Shown here: piece after piece, positions 2,515-30,637 of the stretch
Numbering within the stretch: the stretch's first letter is position 1
Layout of the letters: every line of letters starts with the position of its first letter
Notes under the pieces: model-generated
What the model was told of the DNA's origin: nothing
Database searches by the model: none
The model's input: only the letters and a program-made list of their open reading frames with translations
NCBI GenBank assembly: GCA_049975585.1
Contig: JBNGEB010000002.1
Location: 1 to 46,079, forward strand
Length of the DNA: 46,079 nucleotides
Direction of reading: 5' to 3'
Origin: Anaerolineae bacterium
Lineage (GTDB): Bacteria > Chloroflexota > Anaerolineae > UBA1429
Made by a program: the position numbers and the translations under genes

Positions 2515-3654
2515 CTAAAGAGCGCTCTCGAGTATGCGACGCACGTCCTGACCATCAAGAGGACGCGGGTTGTGCTTGAGCGAACCAGAGGGTAACGAGG
2601 CCTCCACAATCGCGTCAAGATCGTCATCCCGTACTCCCAGAGGTCCTAGATGCTCTGGGATGCCGATATCACGCAGCAACTGCCAAACATGCTCCACGGC
2701 TGCATGCCGTAGCTTCATGTCCGACGCGTCTATATCAGAAATACCCAACAGCTCGGCCACGTGGGCATACTTGGGCGTCGCGGGAAGATTGTACTCCATC
2801 GTATAAGGTAAGAGTAAACCGCATATCATCCCATGAGGAAGCTCAAAGGCGACCCCCAACGGATGTGCCATGCCGTGCACGGCGCCGAGCCGTGCGTTAG
2901 CCATCGCCATACCCGCCAACAGGCTACCGTAGGCCATATCCTCGCGCGCCCGAAGATCCTCCCCCGACGCGTACGCACGAGACAGGGATCGCCCGATGAG
3001 CGTGATAGCCTGCTCCGCCAGACTATCCGTCAGAGGCGTCGCGCCGATGGACGTGTAGGCTTCGATCGCCTGGCAAAGCGCATCGCTGCCCGAATTGGCA
3101 GTCACTTCGGGAGGCATGTCGAGAGTGAGCTCGGGATCGACGATCGCCCACCGCGGGAACCAGCGATCGTCGCGAATCGAATGCTTGATCTTTGCCTCGC
3201 GATCGATCAGCACAGCGTTCTTGGTAACCTCCGCGCCCGTGCCGGCTGTAGTCGGAATGGCCACGAACGGGATTGAAGGACCGTCGACGGGCCGTCCGGC
3301 AAAGTACGCGCCTGGTGGCCCCTCCAGCAGCGCCAGACCGGCCACTGCCTTTGCCAGATCCATAGGGCTCCCGCCACCAAGGCCTACGATGACGTCACAA
3401 TTGCCATCACGGACAAGGCTGCACGCCTCCTCCACCATGCTCAGATCCGGCTCGCGTCCAGCCCGAACGTAGAGCTCCAGCTCGATGTCGTGCTCCGCGG
3501 CAAGCGAGCGAGCTCGATCAACGAGCCCAGAGCGCACAGCGTGCTGTCCACATACCAACAAGCCTCTCCGCCCGCAAGATGCCAAGATCTCGCCCAAGCT
3601 CTCGTAGGCACCCCTGCCCGTACGGATCTGCGTCGGCAAGTAGAACGTGTCCAT
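2515..3654 (-). CDS. iron-containing alcohol dehydrogenase
   Basis: GGGSPMDLAKA dinucleotide motif and conserved His cluster (HGMAHP...H); 379 aa. Confidence 0.85.
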   Translation of the reverse strand: MDTFYLPTQIRTGRGAYESLGEILASCGRRGLLVCGQHAVRSGLVDRARSLAAEHDIELELYVRAGREPDLSMVEEACSLVRDGNCDVIVGLGGGSPMDLAKAVAGLALLEGPPGAYFAGRPVDGPSIPFVAIPTTAGTGAEVTKNAVLIDREAKIKHSIRDDRWFPRWAIVDPELTLDMPPEVTANSGSDALCQAIEAYTSIGATPLTDSLAEQAITLIGRSLSRAYASGEDLRAREDMAYGSLLAGMAMANARLGAVHGMAHPLGVAFELPHGMICGLLLPYTMEYNLPATPKYAHVAELLGISDIDASDMKLRHAAVEHVWQLLRDIGIPEHLGPLGVRDDDLDAIVEASLPSGSLKHNPRPLDGQDVRRILESAL

Positions 3655-8137: not shown

Positions 8138-8222
8138 GCCGAGGTGGCGGAACCGGCAGACGCGCCGCGTTCAGGGCGCGGTGGATATTAGATCCATGAG
8201 GGTTCAAATCCCTCCCTCGGCA
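8138..8222 (+). tRNA. tRNA-Leu (anticodon CAG)
   Basis: Hand-folded. Acceptor GCCGAGG/CCTCGGC; D arm GCG-GAACCGGCAGA-CGC; anticodon stem CCGCG/CGCGG with loop TTCAGGG. Long variable arm TGGATATTAGATCCAT; T arm GAGGG-TTCAAAT-CCCTC; discriminator A. No encoded CCA. Confidence 0.9.
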
Positions 8223-11590: not shown

Positions 11591-11744
11591 GCCATTCTCC
11601 TGTGCCGCAACCATTGTCTTTGCGCGTCTCGCGAGTCTACCATGTCGGACAAGCGACGCCAACCTGGCGCACCTGCCCTCGCCAACAAGGGGGATGCTGA
11701 CCAAGCGAGTCAGCATCCCCCTTTGCCTGACAGAGGTCGAAGGC

Positions 11745-11984
11745 TAGATGATAGCCTCCAGATCCTCAAGTATCTGCCTCTCGGTAGGAAAGCGTCCCGT
11801 CTCCAGCTTGGAGTAGAGCTTGTTCCCATCGACCAGCACCTCAAAAGCCCCGCCCGAGGACGGTACCAAGGCAACCTGCTCCAACCCGTTACGGAATCTG
11901 CCTAGCACCTTTTCCGCCAGACTGGCGGCTCTTGGTAGATAGCCTCAAGAGGTGCAATACTGGATCTCGACCTTGGGGCTCACA
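11745..11984 (-). CDS. Rdx/SelW-like thioredoxin-fold protein with in-frame TGA (putative selenocysteine) in a CxxU motif
   Basis: Not in the ORF track. GTG 11984 lies 8 nt after AAGGAG. Translation: MSPKVEIQYCTS[TGA 11946-11948]GYLPRAASLAEKVLGRFRNGLEQVALVPSSGGAFEVLVDGNKLYSKLETGRFPTERQILEDLEAII. Family hallmarks are EIxYC, GGxFEV, VDG and GRFP. A hairpin lies 16 nt after the TGA. Confidence 0.75.
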
Positions 11985-12076
11985 GTAGATGCTCCTTTTC
12001 TCCCTAAAAACATTGAAGAAGATGCTAACACACGCGCCCCTCCGGTGCAAGGCAAGCTCGTCTCGACCGGATCCAC

Positions 12077-12451
12077 TCACGCCTCGCTGACGGCCAGCAT
12101 ATAGCCATTGATGTCGCCGACGCTGAACTGCCGGCGCCCCGCGAATTCGACGAGGTCCTGCACGATGATGGCGCCTCGGCTTGACAGCTCTTCGTAGGCG
12201 GCGTCCACGTCTTCCACCAGGAGATACAGCACGACGCCGTTGCCCTTCTCGGCGATAAAGTTCCCCTCCGACGTACCGAGATCTATGGTAAAGGCAAAGG
12301 TGATCTCCCCGCGCGAGACGGTCGCATAGCGCGGGTCGCTGGCATTGGGCCACACGAGACCTAACACGAAACCAAGCGCCTCACGGTAGTAGGCTATCGT
12401 CTCGTTCACGTCGTTCACTTGCAGCATCGGCACCACCTGCTTCCATACCAT
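12077..12451 (-). CDS. VOC (glyoxalase/bleomycin-resistance) family protein
   Basis: 124 aa from ATG 12451 (MVWKQVVPMLQVNDV...), preceded by GGAGGAGG. The 297-aa ORF-track version adds an Arg/Gly-rich N-terminus that overlaps comEC. Confidence 0.75.
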   Translation of the reverse strand: MVWKQVVPMLQVNDVNETIAYYREALGFVLGLVWPNASDPRYATVSRGEITFAFTIDLGTSEGNFIAEKGNGVVLYLLVEDVDAAYEELSSRGAIIVQDLVEFAGRRQFSVGDINGYMLAVSEA

Positions 12452-12489
12452 GGCTATGGCACCTCCTCCCAGCACTACATGCTTCGCTG

Positions 12490-14832
12490 CTATTGGATCC
12501 AGAGATGATCGCCGTCCGTCACCAGCTCGATGGTCCCCATCTCGTCGGTCCGGAGCACCCAAGCGCCGATGGCGCCGAGTCTCGCCAACACATCCGCGGC
12601 TGGATGGCCCACGCGGTTCTCCGCACCAACGCTGATCACAGCGATCTCGGGCTGGCAGGCCTGCAGGAAAGCCTCCCCGCTGGATGAGGGCGACCCATGG
12701 TGAGCCACCTTGAGAACGGTCACGGGCCTGACGAGATTCATCTGCAGCAACTCGCGCTCGGCCTCCGCCTCGATGTCGCCTGTGAGCAGCATCGAGAACT
12801 CTCCCATGCGAAGCAAGATGACCACCGAGTTCTCGTTGCGATCGCCCTGGGCCAGCGCCTCTGTTCCTGGATGTAGCACTTCCAAGGTGACACCGCCATC
12901 CAGCCTCACGGATTGCCCTCGAAGAGCCACCGTCGGGACGATCTCTGCCGCCGCCAGTTGCCGCTGCCACTCTAGGCCCAGCGGATCGTCTCCCATGTCA
13001 GGCGGTTGCAGCACCATGCCTATCGCATAGCGACTCGGCAGAGGCGCTAGCCCCGAAAGGTGGTCAGCGTCGGCATGGGTTGCGACCAGTAGATCGATCT
13101 TCCGCTCCCACAGCGGCAGCGCCTGATGGAGCCGCGACGCCAAGACCAGCGGATCGGGCCCCCCGTCGACCAGCACCGTCGTGCCTGATGGCGTCCGAAT
13201 CAGGATGCCATCCCCTTGACCCACATCAAAGACATGGACGTGGAGGCGACCATCGGGGAGCTTGGCGAGCTGGGACAGGATCGCTAGGACCAGCAGGAGA
13301 GCAGCGAACGCGGCACTCAGGACACCAACCCGCTGCCGTATCCACGTGATCGCCTTGCTGCCCGCGCGTGCCAGATGCCGAAACATCAACGCTCCTCCTA
13401 CGAACCCATAGAACCCCACCAGAAGCCAAGGAGACGGAGCCGCGACCTGCCAGGAGGCGATGGATAGCGTCCCGAACGCCTCCGCCACTGTGATGGTCCA
13501 CCAGAGTGGCACGTAGGCCAGAGCTGCCACGGCCATCCCCAGAGACTTCCATAGCCAGCCAGCTAGTGCTGCAAAGGCCCCCAATATGGTGATGGGCGGC
13601 TGTGCTGGCAACGCCAGTACGTTGGCCGGGAGCGCCAACAGCGATATCTCCTGGAAATGATACCAGAGTATCGGAAACGTCAGAAGCTGAGCCGCACACG
13701 TGGAGAGAAGATATGAGCTTGCCAACCTGGTTACGCTTTGCGCGTTGGGGTGAGCAAGATGCCGGCCCAGCAGGCTCAGAGTCCAGCTTTCGAACATGGG
13801 CGTCAGGCCGATAAGCGCTAGCGTGGAGACCATGGAGAGCTGAAAGCTGACGTCCCACACAAGGGCTGGATTGGCAGCCGTCATCAGCAGAGAGGCCCAC
13901 GATAGCGAGGTGAGTACGTGCGGCTTGCGCCCCACCAGTTCCGCCAGCACGAGGAATCCCCCCATGATCGCGGCCCTCACAACGGGTGGGCTGGGCCCCA
14001 CGAACAGCGTGTAAACTGCAATGGCACCAGCCGCAACCAAAAGCGTCAGCCTTCGGGGCGACCATCTCTCCAGAACCAGGACGGTCTGCTGCAGCACAAG
14101 CCCGATGTTAAAGCCAGAGATGACGATGACGTGGGTCAGCCCCGATCGGCGAAAGGCCTCTTCTACATCGTGGGGAAGCGTATGCCCGAGCCCCAGCAGG
14201 ATTCCACTAAGCAGGCCGGCCTCTGGCTCTGGCAGAATGCGCTCGATGCTTTCGCGAGCCCGATCCTTGATCACGTACATCAAGCGCAGAAGCGGCGAAC
14301 CAGCATCTCCTGGCAGGCTACGAGCTTTTACCCAAGCCATCGTCGCATCGACACGATGCGCCGCGAGATACCGGCCATACGCCCCCGAGCTAGGACCGAC
14401 CGGCTCCACATGCCCTGTCACGGCCAGACGCTGGCCGTAGCTGCGTTCGGGATACCGGCTCAGGGTGACCAGAACCCGACCCGAGGCCGGAACCAGCGAG
14501 CCGCGTTGCTCAACAGCTTCCACGCTCAAGCAGACCTGTAGGCTGGTGCTACGGTAGATGGGCTCTTCGGCTATATGCCCGTACACCGTGATCTCGCGCC
14601 CAGCGAGACCCTCCCACAGCTCAGGAGCGCTTGTTCGCGCTTGCAGCCGCTGAACTCCTGCCCCACCAAGTAGGCCAATCCCTATCGCAAGAGCAGCCGT
14701 AGCCAACCCTCGCTTGCCCAGCCGCCATCCTATCCCTGCTGCCAGCGCACAGGCCCCCGCAGCCGGCATGGCCAACACTGACTCTGCGATGCCTGCCAAC
14801 CAGCCGATGGCTACCCACACCATAGTTGTCAT
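12490..14832 (-). CDS. comEC: DNA internalization competence protein ComEC/Rec2 (with C-terminal metallo-beta-lactamase domain)
   Basis: Polytopic ComEC core plus HADADHLSG MBL motif. Start uncertain: ATG 14832 (MTTMVWV...) is preferred because it leaves room for the divergent mtaB promoter. The alternative is 14931. Confidence 0.85.
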   Translation of the reverse strand: MTTMVWVAIGWLAGIAESVLAMPAAGACALAAGIGWRLGKRGLATAALAIGIGLLGGAGVQRLQARTSAPELWEGLAGREITVYGHIAEEPIYRSTSLQVCLSVEAVEQRGSLVPASGRVLVTLSRYPERSYGQRLAVTGHVEPVGPSSGAYGRYLAAHRVDATMAWVKARSLPGDAGSPLLRLMYVIKDRARESIERILPEPEAGLLSGILLGLGHTLPHDVEEAFRRSGLTHVIVISGFNIGLVLQQTVLVLERWSPRRLTLLVAAGAIAVYTLFVGPSPPVVRAAIMGGFLVLAELVGRKPHVLTSLSWASLLMTAANPALVWDVSFQLSMVSTLALIGLTPMFESWTLSLLGRHLAHPNAQSVTRLASSYLLSTCAAQLLTFPILWYHFQEISLLALPANVLALPAQPPITILGAFAALAGWLWKSLGMAVAALAYVPLWWTITVAEAFGTLSIASWQVAAPSPWLLVGFYGFVGGALMFRHLARAGSKAITWIRQRVGVLSAAFAALLLVLAILSQLAKLPDGRLHVHVFDVGQGDGILIRTPSGTTVLVDGGPDPLVLASRLHQALPLWERKIDLLVATHADADHLSGLAPLPSRYAIGMVLQPPDMGDDPLGLEWQRQLAAAEIVPTVALRGQSVRLDGGVTLEVLHPGTEALAQGDRNENSVVILLRMGEFSMLLTGDIEAEAERELLQMNLVRPVTVLKVAHHGSPSSSGEAFLQACQPEIAVISVGAENRVGHPAADVLARLGAIGAWVLRTDEMGTIELVTDGDHLWIQ

Positions 14833-16363: not shown

Positions 16364-16804
16364 ATGATGGACCTGAAGGCGCAGCTCATGGAAGATCTGA
16401 AAACAGCCATGCGTCAGCACGACGACATAGCTAGGGACACGATTCGTTTGGCAAGAGCGGCCATTATCAACGCCGAGATCAGGCTCCAGCATGAGATATC
16501 CGATGCCGAGGTCGTCAGGATCATCAGCAAGGAAGTCGACCTTCGCAAGGAAGCTGCCGAGGAGCTCCAACGTGCCGGCCGTGACGATCTGGCGGCAAGA
16601 GAGCTTGCTGATGTCGCTGTCCTCGTCAGGTACTTGCCTGAGCCGATGACCGAAGATCAGATCCGTGCGCAAGCCCGTGTCGTGATCGAAGGCATGGGCG
16701 CTTCGAGTCTGCGAGATATGGGCCCGGTAATGCGCGAGTTGATGGGCCGTCTATCTGGCCACGCTGATGGCGGCATCGTCAGCCGCATCGTCGTGAGATG
16801 CTGA
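16364..16804 (+). CDS. GatB/YqeY domain protein
   Basis: MMDLKAQLMEDLKTAMRQHD...ISKEV pattern typical of YqeY; 146 aa. AGGAG RBS. Confidence 0.8.
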   Translation: MMDLKAQLMEDLKTAMRQHDDIARDTIRLARAAIINAEIRLQHEISDAEVVRIISKEVDLRKEAAEELQRAGRDDLAARELADVAVLVRYLPEPMTEDQIRAQARVVIEGMGASSLRDMGPVMRELMGRLSGHADGGIVSRIVVRC

Positions 16805-27012: not shown

Positions 27013-27032
27013 AGGTATGTAACAATAAAATA

Positions 27033-27122
27033 GGCCGCTGGGGGAGCCGCTGGGCTGAGAGGATGACTTTCGTCATCGACCCCTGGAACCTGATCTGGGT
27101 CATGCCAGCGTAGGGAAGCATA
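27033..27122 (+). promoter_or_regulatory. TPP (THI-box) riboswitch aptamer
   Basis: GGGGAGCC...CTGAGAGG...ACCCCTGGAACCTGATCTGGGTCATGCCAGCGTAGGGAAGC matches the THI-element core (CUGAGA, ACCC, GAACCUGAUC, GCCAGCG, AGGGAA). Confidence 0.9.
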
Positions 27123-27139
27123 GAATCGAGCTTTCACAA

Positions 27140-29662: not shown

Positions 29663-30637
29663 ATGCGAAGGTCAATGATCATCATCGGATTGAGCGTTCT
29701 GTGTATAGGCGCGTTGGTTGGGTGCCGGCAGACGCCGGCCACGGCGGCGACCCTTTCGCTGGATTGGGTGCCAAACACCAACCACACCGGGTTTTACGTC
29801 GCACTGGACAAGGGCTGGTACGAGGAGGAAGGCGTCGATCTCACCATCGAGATCCCGTCCGATCCGTCCGCAGCTCTCAAGCAGGTTGGAGCCGGCAACA
29901 CTGAGTTTGGCGTCAGTTTCCAGGAAGAAGTGACCGTTGCGCGGGCTACGGGGATACCCGTTGTCTCTATTGCTGCCATCATCCAGCACAACACTTCGGC
30001 CTTTGCCGCTTTGGCCGAGTCTGGGGTGTCTTCAGCGGCCGACTTTGAGGGGCTGCGCTACGCTTCGTATGGGTTGCCTATCGAAAGGCCGATCCTCAAG
30101 GCGCTGATGGCCTGCGATGGCGCCGACGTGGATACCGTGACCTTTATCGACGTGGGGTTTGATGCCTTTCCGGCGCTGCTGGCAGGGCGTGTCGACCTAG
30201 CTTGGATCTTCCTAGGGTGGGATGGTGTGCAGGCCGAACTCAAGGGGGTTGAGCTAGCCACGGTGCCCTTGTATGGAAGCTGTGTGCCAGACTACTATAC
30301 ACCCGTTATTGTGGCCGGAGAACAGACACTCGACGAGAAGCCAGAGCTCACCCGGGCCTTTATGAGGGCGACGCGACGCGGCTACGAATATGCTGCTGAG
30401 CATCCGGACGAGGCCGCCGAGATCCTGCTGGCCCACTCGCCCGAGAGCGATCCGGAGCTTGTCCGCGCTAGCCAGGAGTGGCTGAGTCCTCGCTACCAAG
30501 ATGACGCGCCGAGTTGGGGTGTCCAGGATCCAGAGGTGTGGCGCCGGTTTACCGCCTTTATGGAAGAGAATGATTTGCTTGACGTGCCCGTCGACCCCGA
30601 TAAAGCCTTTACCAACGCGTTCCTAGAGAACGACTAG
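29663..30637 (+). CDS. thiY: ABC transporter substrate-binding lipoprotein, NMT1/THI5-like (ThiY-like)
   Basis: Lipobox LVGC. LDWVPNTNHTGFYVA motif typical of NMT1/THI5-like binding proteins. Confidence 0.75.
   Translation: MRRSMIIIGLSVLCIGALVGCRQTPATAATLSLDWVPNTNHTGFYVALDKGWYEEEGVDLTIEIPSDPSAALKQVGAGNTEFGVSFQEEVTVARATGIPVVSIAAIIQHNTSAFAALAESGVSSAADFEGLRYASYGLPIERPILKALMACDGADVDTVTFIDVGFDAFPALLAGRVDLAWIFLGWDGVQAELKGVELATVPLYGSCVPDYYTPVIVAGEQTLDEKPELTRAFMRATRRGYEYAAEHPDEAAEILLAHSPESDPELVRASQEWLSPRYQDDAPSWGVQDPEVWRRFTAFMEENDLLDVPVDPDKAFTNAFLEND

Follow-up and report, generated by a model that had tools for sequence, protein, structure and literature searches.

Does an in-frame UGA near the start of a short minus-strand gene of an Anaerolineae bacterium end a broken reading frame, or is it read as selenocysteine (Sec)? 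The question is raised by a stretch of 46,079 nt from contig JBNGEB010000002.1 (hereafter, the window), in which a preliminary description had pointed to a candidate selenoprotein of the Rdx/SelW type. SelW-like selenoproteins with a CxxU motif and a small SECIS hairpin in the coding region are established in bacteria (PMC1088965; PMC1794560; PMC5029168). They constituted the most abundant selenoprotein family in Sargasso Sea data, where the CxxU motif was recorded (PMC1088965); a 2006 count over complete bacterial genomes gave ten, Cys forms being rare or lacking in organisms that use Sec (PMC1794560), and a 2016 survey found them in 35 organisms (PMC5029168). Annotation frequently overlooks them (PMC4607533). 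In the following, we describe the gene, its family, the conservation of its UGA codon, the hairpin that follows this codon and the genes that surround it, and the alternative explanations are weighed where the evidence bears on them.

Gene structure and annotation

The elements that make up the locus all lie on the minus strand:

11992–11997, minus strand: Shine-Dalgarno sequence AAGGAG, read from the sequence, with an 8-nt spacer to the GTG start
11744–11983, minus strand: predicted SelW-like/Rdx-family selenoprotein gene, 79 codons plus TAG, GTG start, U at codon 13
11954–11956, minus strand: TGC codon of Cys10, the first residue of the CxxU motif (TGC or TGT in 84 of 84 homologues)
11945–11947, minus strand: in-frame UGA at codon 13, predicted to encode selenocysteine (TGA in 84 of 84 loci)
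11914–11928, minus strand: predicted bacterial-type SECIS hairpin with a 6-bp stem (CCGCCA/UGGCGG) and a GUC apical loop, 16 nt past the UGA
11687–11723, minus strand: perfect 16-bp GC-rich stem-loop with a weak U-tract, 20 nt past the stop codon of the Rdx gene

The frame runs from the GTG at 11983–11981 to the TAG at 11746–11744, with the TGA of codon 13 (11947–11945) as its sole interruption, and its translation is VSPKVEIQYCTS*GYLPRAASLAEKVLGRFRNGLEQVALVPSSGGAFEVLVDGNKLYSKLETGRFPTERQILEDLEAII*, the first asterisk marking the TGA. This is exactly the peptide that had been proposed earlier, and the claim of an unlisted, RBS-preceded minus-strand gene of 79 codons is likewise borne out, the arrangement AAGGAG-8 nt-GTG being present. 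As for positions, the RBS spacing and the location of the hairpin had been given correctly, and most other coordinates were 1 nt too high (the GTG had been placed at 11984 instead of 11983–11981, and the TGA at 11946–11948 instead of 11947–11945). Relatives carry the Shine-Dalgarno sequence GGAAGGAG at an equal distance from an ATG start (L001), and full-length orthologues that keep both the frame and the start occur in at least 20 Anaerolineales species.

In the ORF list, which was compiled with a 40-aa minimum, the Rdx gene is present as fragments only. The first (11744–11908, 54 aa) is its in-frame 3' part; the second (11945–12076, 43 aa) terminates at the TGA and is opened by an upstream GTG that is backed by neither homologues nor an RBS. 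Beyond the 3' end, the 67-nt stretch around the stem-loop at 11723–11687 folds at −37.8 kcal/mol (z = −5.3), an energy equalled by 0 of 200 shuffles, and the stem-loop probably serves to terminate transcription or to stabilise the mRNA; a consensus terminator scan made no call for it because its U-tract is weak. We regard the Rdx gene as functional and, from its appearance, monocistronic.

Membership in the Rdx/SelW family

Profile and PDB comparisons were carried out with the protein sequence in which U had been replaced by C. By profile-HMM search, this query matched the Pfam Rdx family (PF10262) with 84.2 bits (cut-off 22.6; E = 7.2e-24), over residues 4–75 and profile positions 1–72 of 74, and TIGR02174 (CXXU_selWTH) with 74.3 bits (cut-off 34.2); both matches, far above their curated cut-offs, uphold the family assignment of the preliminary description. 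The top-scoring NCBIfam model was NF041051 (SelTWH_Campy), which covers Campylobacter-type SelT/SelW/SelH proteins alike in length and architecture; at 85.7 bits, the match falls just below the equivalog cut-off of 88, and the window protein is therefore assigned to a related subfamily and not to that equivalog.

Among solved structures, the best match was the bacterial Cys-type Rdx protein Atu0228 (2fa8, E = 7e-15), followed by 2obk, 2ojl, 3dex, 2oka and 2p0g, also bacterial and of Cys type, and a thioredoxin-like fold is predicted for the product by homology to these Rdx structures (E = 7e-15). The six proteins are alignable with residues 2–75 (E = 7e-15 to 3e-11) and share the motifs (I/V)xYC, PSxGGxFE, VDG and GxFP, their CxxC lying exactly on CxxU, but they differ in their length (about 103–108 aa), in having CTQC with a second Cys, and in requiring no recoding. 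In the alignment with 2fa8, 2obk and 2ojl, C10-T-S-U13 matches CTQC column for column: Cys10 stands on the first Cys of CxxC and U on the second, which agrees with the earlier placement of the TGA at the second redox residue. Mouse SelW (2npb) was matched at E = 0.003. Mammalian selenoprotein W is thus a distant relative of the same fold family that also has CxxU, but its SECIS element is located in the 3' UTR and operates with SBP2 and eEFSec, whereas the element in the window lies within the ORF, just past the UGA.

Conservation of the UGA codon and selection on its two sides

The UGA site was compared across 84 loci, that is, the window, contigs reached via truncated protein matches, and the best 80 of 460 confirmed matches among GTDB species representatives; these loci are labelled as Anaerolineales/Chloroflexota, Bacillales, Poribacteria, Gemmataceae, Verrucomicrobiota and, in one case, a Bathyarchaeota MAG. 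The codon is TGA in all 84 (including the best 80 of the 460 matches), and TAA, TAG, TGC or TGT is found at this site in 0 of the 84. Close relatives with TGC and no conserved hairpin, a pattern that had been suggested as the mark of a nonsense pseudogene, are therefore not what is seen here, the hairpin being conserved together with the codon.

Selection was evaluated in 20 Anaerolineales sequences. The pN/pS ratio is 0.39 upstream of the UGA (10 codons; pS 0.59, pN 0.23) and 0.38 downstream of it (60 codons), and the codons just before the UGA vary synonymously (TGC/TGT for Cys; ACC/ACA/ACG/ACT for Thr). Because the two ratios are equal, we conclude that both halves are translated in one frame, and the view that both had been kept intact, with the upstream codons conserved, now has a quantitative footing. 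A nonsense pseudogene—that is, a formerly Cys-type Rdx gene whose TGC or TGT codon has become TGA by mutation, leaving a peptide of only 12 residues—would need just one transversion (C or T to A), and the failure to find Sec machinery in the window would suit it. We nevertheless regard it as barely credible, given that all 84 homologues, from several phyla, have TGA and none has a Cys codon, that purifying selection is equal on the two halves, that the RBS and start are conserved, and that the hairpin downstream covaries (see below).

Public gene calls offer another reading of the locus. With a single exception, the database entries for close relatives (P0001–P0029) are 5'-truncated, at about 44–64 aa, and begin past the UGA, with some of them bearing the name 'selenoprotein W-related protein'; the only full-length entry, P0011 (Logan), has W at the UGA site and was apparently called with a code in which UGA is Trp. 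We attribute both kinds of call to the inability of gene callers to read UGA. If the truncated ORFs (54–64 aa) were instead taken at face value, the true product in the window would be the 54-aa ORF that begins at GTG 11908, which does exist in the ORF list (11744–11908), and the codons upstream would form an untranslated leader. This is very improbable: such a product would have neither the N-terminal EIxYC stretch nor the family-defining CxxU; the start codons chosen by the callers are not conserved, the TTG of L001 being CTA in the window; the 10 upstream codons show the substitution pattern of coding sequence in the frame of the gene; and it is GTG 11983, not 11908, that is preceded by a strong RBS.

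The genetic code of the organism also bears on how the codon is read. In the window, TGA is the stop codon of mtaB and of the genes for an HDIG protein and a lipid kinase, and 0 of 11 family-supported genes contain an internal TGA; we therefore take the code to be standard. A reading of the UGA as one of the standard amino acids (Trp, Gly or Cys), by genome-wide or context-dependent reassignment or by near-cognate read-through, could draw on the W in relative P0011 and on the fact that some systems can place Cys at Sec codons when selenium is limiting. It is set against the use of TGA as terminator in at least three well-supported window genes and its absence inside all eleven, the location of the site at the catalytic position of CxxC/CxxU, the presence of a hairpin of SECIS type that covaries and keeps a constant distance from the UGA, for which plain read-through has no need, and the occurrence of the subfamily in sel clusters beside tRNA-Sec in other phyla; on balance, we consider such decoding highly unlikely. 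Even when the decayed gene, the short ORF and the standard amino acid are added together, they account for only a small share of the probability.

A crude scan of the window for TGA-interrupted ORFs returned 225 candidates, about 50 of which had a Cys nearby; those other than the Rdx gene were judged to be off-frame noise. A TGA at 16802 ends an ORF upstream of the HDIG gene in the same frame, at a place where a YqeY gene is found in L001.

The hairpin downstream of the UGA

The sequence CCGCCA-GUC-UGGCGG (11928–11914), which begins 16 nt past the UGA, forms a hairpin of −9.9 kcal/mol (z = −2.7). The preliminary description had reported it as CCGCC/AGUCU/GGCGG, to which RNAfold adds one A-U pair, resulting in the 6-bp stem and the GUC loop. 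Since the 66-nt context after the UGA folds no better than shuffles (z = −0.05), the 21-nt hairpin alone stands out, and does so modestly; it is on covariation and not on energy that we consider the hairpin real. For background, the spacing rule of bSECISearch allows roughly 16–37 nt between the UGA and the loop.

To assess covariation, 78 distinct sequences were aligned without gaps. Of the cells that make up the six pairs of the hairpin, 98.1% are paired, compared with 23–51% in controls in which the 3' strand was shifted by 1–3 columns. Double changes occur in three of the six pairs, with the following counts:

Alignment columns 27–33: GC 36, CG 30, AU 11, UA 1, with 0 unpaired; both are third codon positions
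Alignment columns 24–36: CG 58, UA 15, AU 1, UG 1; both are third codon positions
Alignment columns 26–34: CG 63, UG 10, UA 5; UA requires Ala-to-Val plus Ala-to-Thr

The last of these pairs is compensatory and non-synonymous, an Ala-to-Val change (GUC) being matched by an Ala-to-Thr change (ACG). In five lineages, AAS-LAE (GCC...GCG) has become AVS-LTD (GUC...ACG), and G-U intermediates (GUC...GCG) are preserved in ten others. Because pair 26–34 changes in step in this way, it shows that the RNA structure constrains the protein sequence. The first base of the loop is an invariant G, which at least 90% of sequences follow with U; the distance between UGA and hairpin is invariant and free of indels in all 78, and RNAalifold independently recovers the inner five pairs of the helix. 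Thus, the hairpin that had been noted 16 nt past the UGA, with GU in its apical loop, is both present and covarying. The extension of its stem by UACC/GGUG pairing fared otherwise: the complementary bases are present in the window sequence, yet only 45% of cells are paired in homologues, and this lower stem was dropped from the model because it is not conserved.

Compared to the SECIS element of E. coli fdhF, which is recognized by SelB, the hairpin is alike in being in frame, immediately 3' of the UGA and at a fixed distance from it, with a G-U apical loop, but it retains only the 6-bp upper helix and has neither a conserved lower stem nor a bulged U. Searches of Rfam with the whole window and with 11700–12050, at E up to 10, gave no SECIS-type family, and binding of SelB to the element is a prediction.

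Selenocysteine machinery and gene linkage

Neither selA, selB, selD nor tRNA-Sec was found in the 46-kb window, in which about 20 of the largest ORFs were scanned and ARAGORN was run, and none of them lies within 10 kb of the gene in any Anaerolineales locus, where tblastn with the SelA, SelB and SelD of Planococcus gave no match. A 28% 'SelB' match in L025, which lies beside a tRNA cluster, is probably EF-Tu. In a SelA profile search, the best 120 of 8000 matches came from Bacillales, Verrucomicrobiota and a few other lineages, with no Anaerolineales among them. From the literature, SelB genes have been reported both from single-cell genomes of Anaerolineales and from A. thermophila (PMC4959059), and Chloroflexi are among the phyla with the Sec-decoding trait (PMC1794560; PMC5322559). 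For this genome, the Sec machinery is a prediction. The tRNA-Sec reported for Chloroflexi has an 8/4 acceptor/T-stem form.

In other lineages, the SelW-like gene is closely linked to sel genes. All 50 Bacillales-type loci that were sampled (within L026–L086) have selA 31–1169 nt downstream of the SelW-like gene; 44 of these loci also have selB, selD or both no farther than 10 kb away, tRNA-Sec was found in 25, and in several of them, for example L039, selB is directly upstream. The order in this Planococcus locus (L039, 5488–11677) is selD, a glycosyltransferase gene, tRNA-Sec, selB, the SelW-like gene and selA. In a Verrucomicrobiota MAG (L080, 3026–7850), the SelW-like gene is followed by tRNA-Sec (3400–3496), selD, selA and selB, and in a Gemmataceae MAG (L069, 10019–11290), selD is located 214 nt downstream of the SelW-like gene. 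In a limited literature search, no description was found of SelW-like genes placed beside selA in Bacillales or beside selC/selD in the two other phyla.

Two of the related loci carry further features of their own. In Planococcus, the selD gene (L039:6354–6560, minus strand) has an in-frame stop in SSKGG*GCK, which we take to be the classical GUGCK site; with SelD interrupted as well, these Bacillales would have at least two predicted selenoproteins within the sel cluster. A contig binned as Candidatus Bathyarchaeota (L034:4185–4406) encodes a homologue of 57% identity with a bacterial-type hairpin within the ORF. Since the 3' UTR is the normal place of SECIS elements in archaea, either mis-binning of a bacterial contig or horizontal transfer is the probable explanation.

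Genomic context

The nearest genomic relatives of the window are Anaerolineales/Chloroflexota MAGs, with protein identities of up to 86%; among the relatives, AnMBR.bin314 has the orthologue on a 3.3-Mb contig (JAXGPZ010000001.1; L019). On the minus strand, the order of genes is comEC (14931–12490), a glyoxalase/VOC gene (12451–12077), the Rdx gene and a homoserine dehydrogenase gene (hom), and the arrangement comEC-(VOC)-Rdx-hom is syntenic in several Anaerolineales MAGs; mutY-like, aspA and tRNA-Leu(CAG) genes are situated farther out in relatives.

The VOC gene between comEC and the Rdx gene (12077–12451, minus strand) encodes 124 aa and matches Pfam PF00903 at E = 9e-10. In the ORF list, it is masked by a 297-aa ORF (12077–12970) that overlaps comEC. 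The relatives L007, L008, L012, L014 and L023 have the VOC gene conserved at this place, ahead of the Rdx gene. On the other side, the first ATG of the listed hom ORF (11716) falls inside the stem-loop at 11687–11723, and hom therefore probably starts about 40 codons farther downstream. Elsewhere in the window, a tRNA-Leu(CAG) gene (8138–8222, plus strand) adjoins YgjP-like and aspA genes and is syntenic in most Anaerolineales relatives. A TPP riboswitch (27030–27133, plus strand; Rfam RF00059, 70 bits) precedes a run of plus-strand genes from 27191 onward that includes an SsuA-family substrate-binding protein (29663–30637); the run is probably an operon for the transport or salvage of thiamine or a precursor.

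Proposed mechanism

Taken together, the family membership, the position of U, the TGA in 84 of 84 loci, the conserved upstream codons and the covarying hairpin support the initial reading of the locus as a candidate selenoprotein gene, and, on this comparative sequence evidence, we consider it very probable that it is a SelW-like Rdx selenoprotein gene whose UGA is recoded to selenocysteine via SelB and a SECIS element. Translation would initiate at GTG 11983, past the strong Shine-Dalgarno sequence, and the UGA at codon 13 would not be taken as a stop. Instead, the short hairpin within the ORF, 16 nt farther on and spanning the stretch that codes for AASLAE, would act as a bacterial SECIS element, tethering SelB-GTP-Sec-tRNA(Sec) to the ribosome through its presumed binding to SelB, so that selenocysteine is inserted. 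The predicted product of 79 residues would carry C10-T-S-U13 where the Cys homologues have CxxC and, by the redox chemistry expected of the family, would presumably act as a thiol-dependent oxidoreductase that alternates between a selenol/thiol and a selenenylsulfide state. Selenium incorporation at residue 13, the binding of SelB, the redox chemistry and the substrate are all proposed from what is known of the family.

In nearly every respect, this gene conforms to the bacterial SelW-like selenoproteins described previously (PMC1088965; PMC1794560; PMC5029168; TIGR02174). These are likewise Rdx proteins of about 75–80 aa with an N-terminal CxxU, encoded by genes in which an in-frame UGA is followed by a small hairpin in the coding region with G in its apical loop; their close relatives, too, include hardly any Cys forms or none, and annotation routinely misses or truncates them. 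There is no essential difference: the copy in the window comes from an uncultured lineage of the Anaerolineales that is represented mostly by MAGs, has a CTSU motif, and sits between a VOC gene and hom, away from sel genes.

Implications

Given that SelW-like selenoproteins are established and that curated NCBI models for them exist, the gene adds a member to a known selenoprotein family, and the knowledge of selenoproteins in general is unchanged by it. Its main value is for annotation, the gene being invisible or truncated in standard ORF calls. As a predicted selenoprotein gene, it also marks this Anaerolineales lineage as a predicted user of selenocysteine; selA, selB, selC and selD are therefore predicted elsewhere in the genome, in which further selenoproteins are possible. 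In addition, the hairpin is a very clean case of covariation in a minimal bacterial SECIS element, with a 6-bp helix, fixed spacing and the paired exchange of Ala/Ala for Val/Thr, and could help to train predictors of bacterial SECIS elements and selenoproteins.

With regard to the family, the adjacency of SelW-like and sel genes in related loci is a hint that the protein may act in the metabolism of selenium itself. Because selA (in 50 of 50 Bacillales-type loci), selC-selD-selA-selB (in Verrucomicrobiota) and selD (in Gemmataceae) adjoin the gene, we tentatively raise the idea, which is speculative and on present evidence rather unlikely, that the obligate-Sec SelW-like clade is an accessory of selenium/Sec metabolism, or a UGA 'test ORF', and not a generic antioxidant. 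As an accessory, the protein may be a redox partner of SelD or SelA in the handling of selenide or selenium; as a 'test ORF', the decoding of its UGA may report the availability of Sec-tRNA(Sec) and tune the expression of selA downstream. If this idea were true, the Anaerolineales copy would be the same factor, relocated outside the operon.
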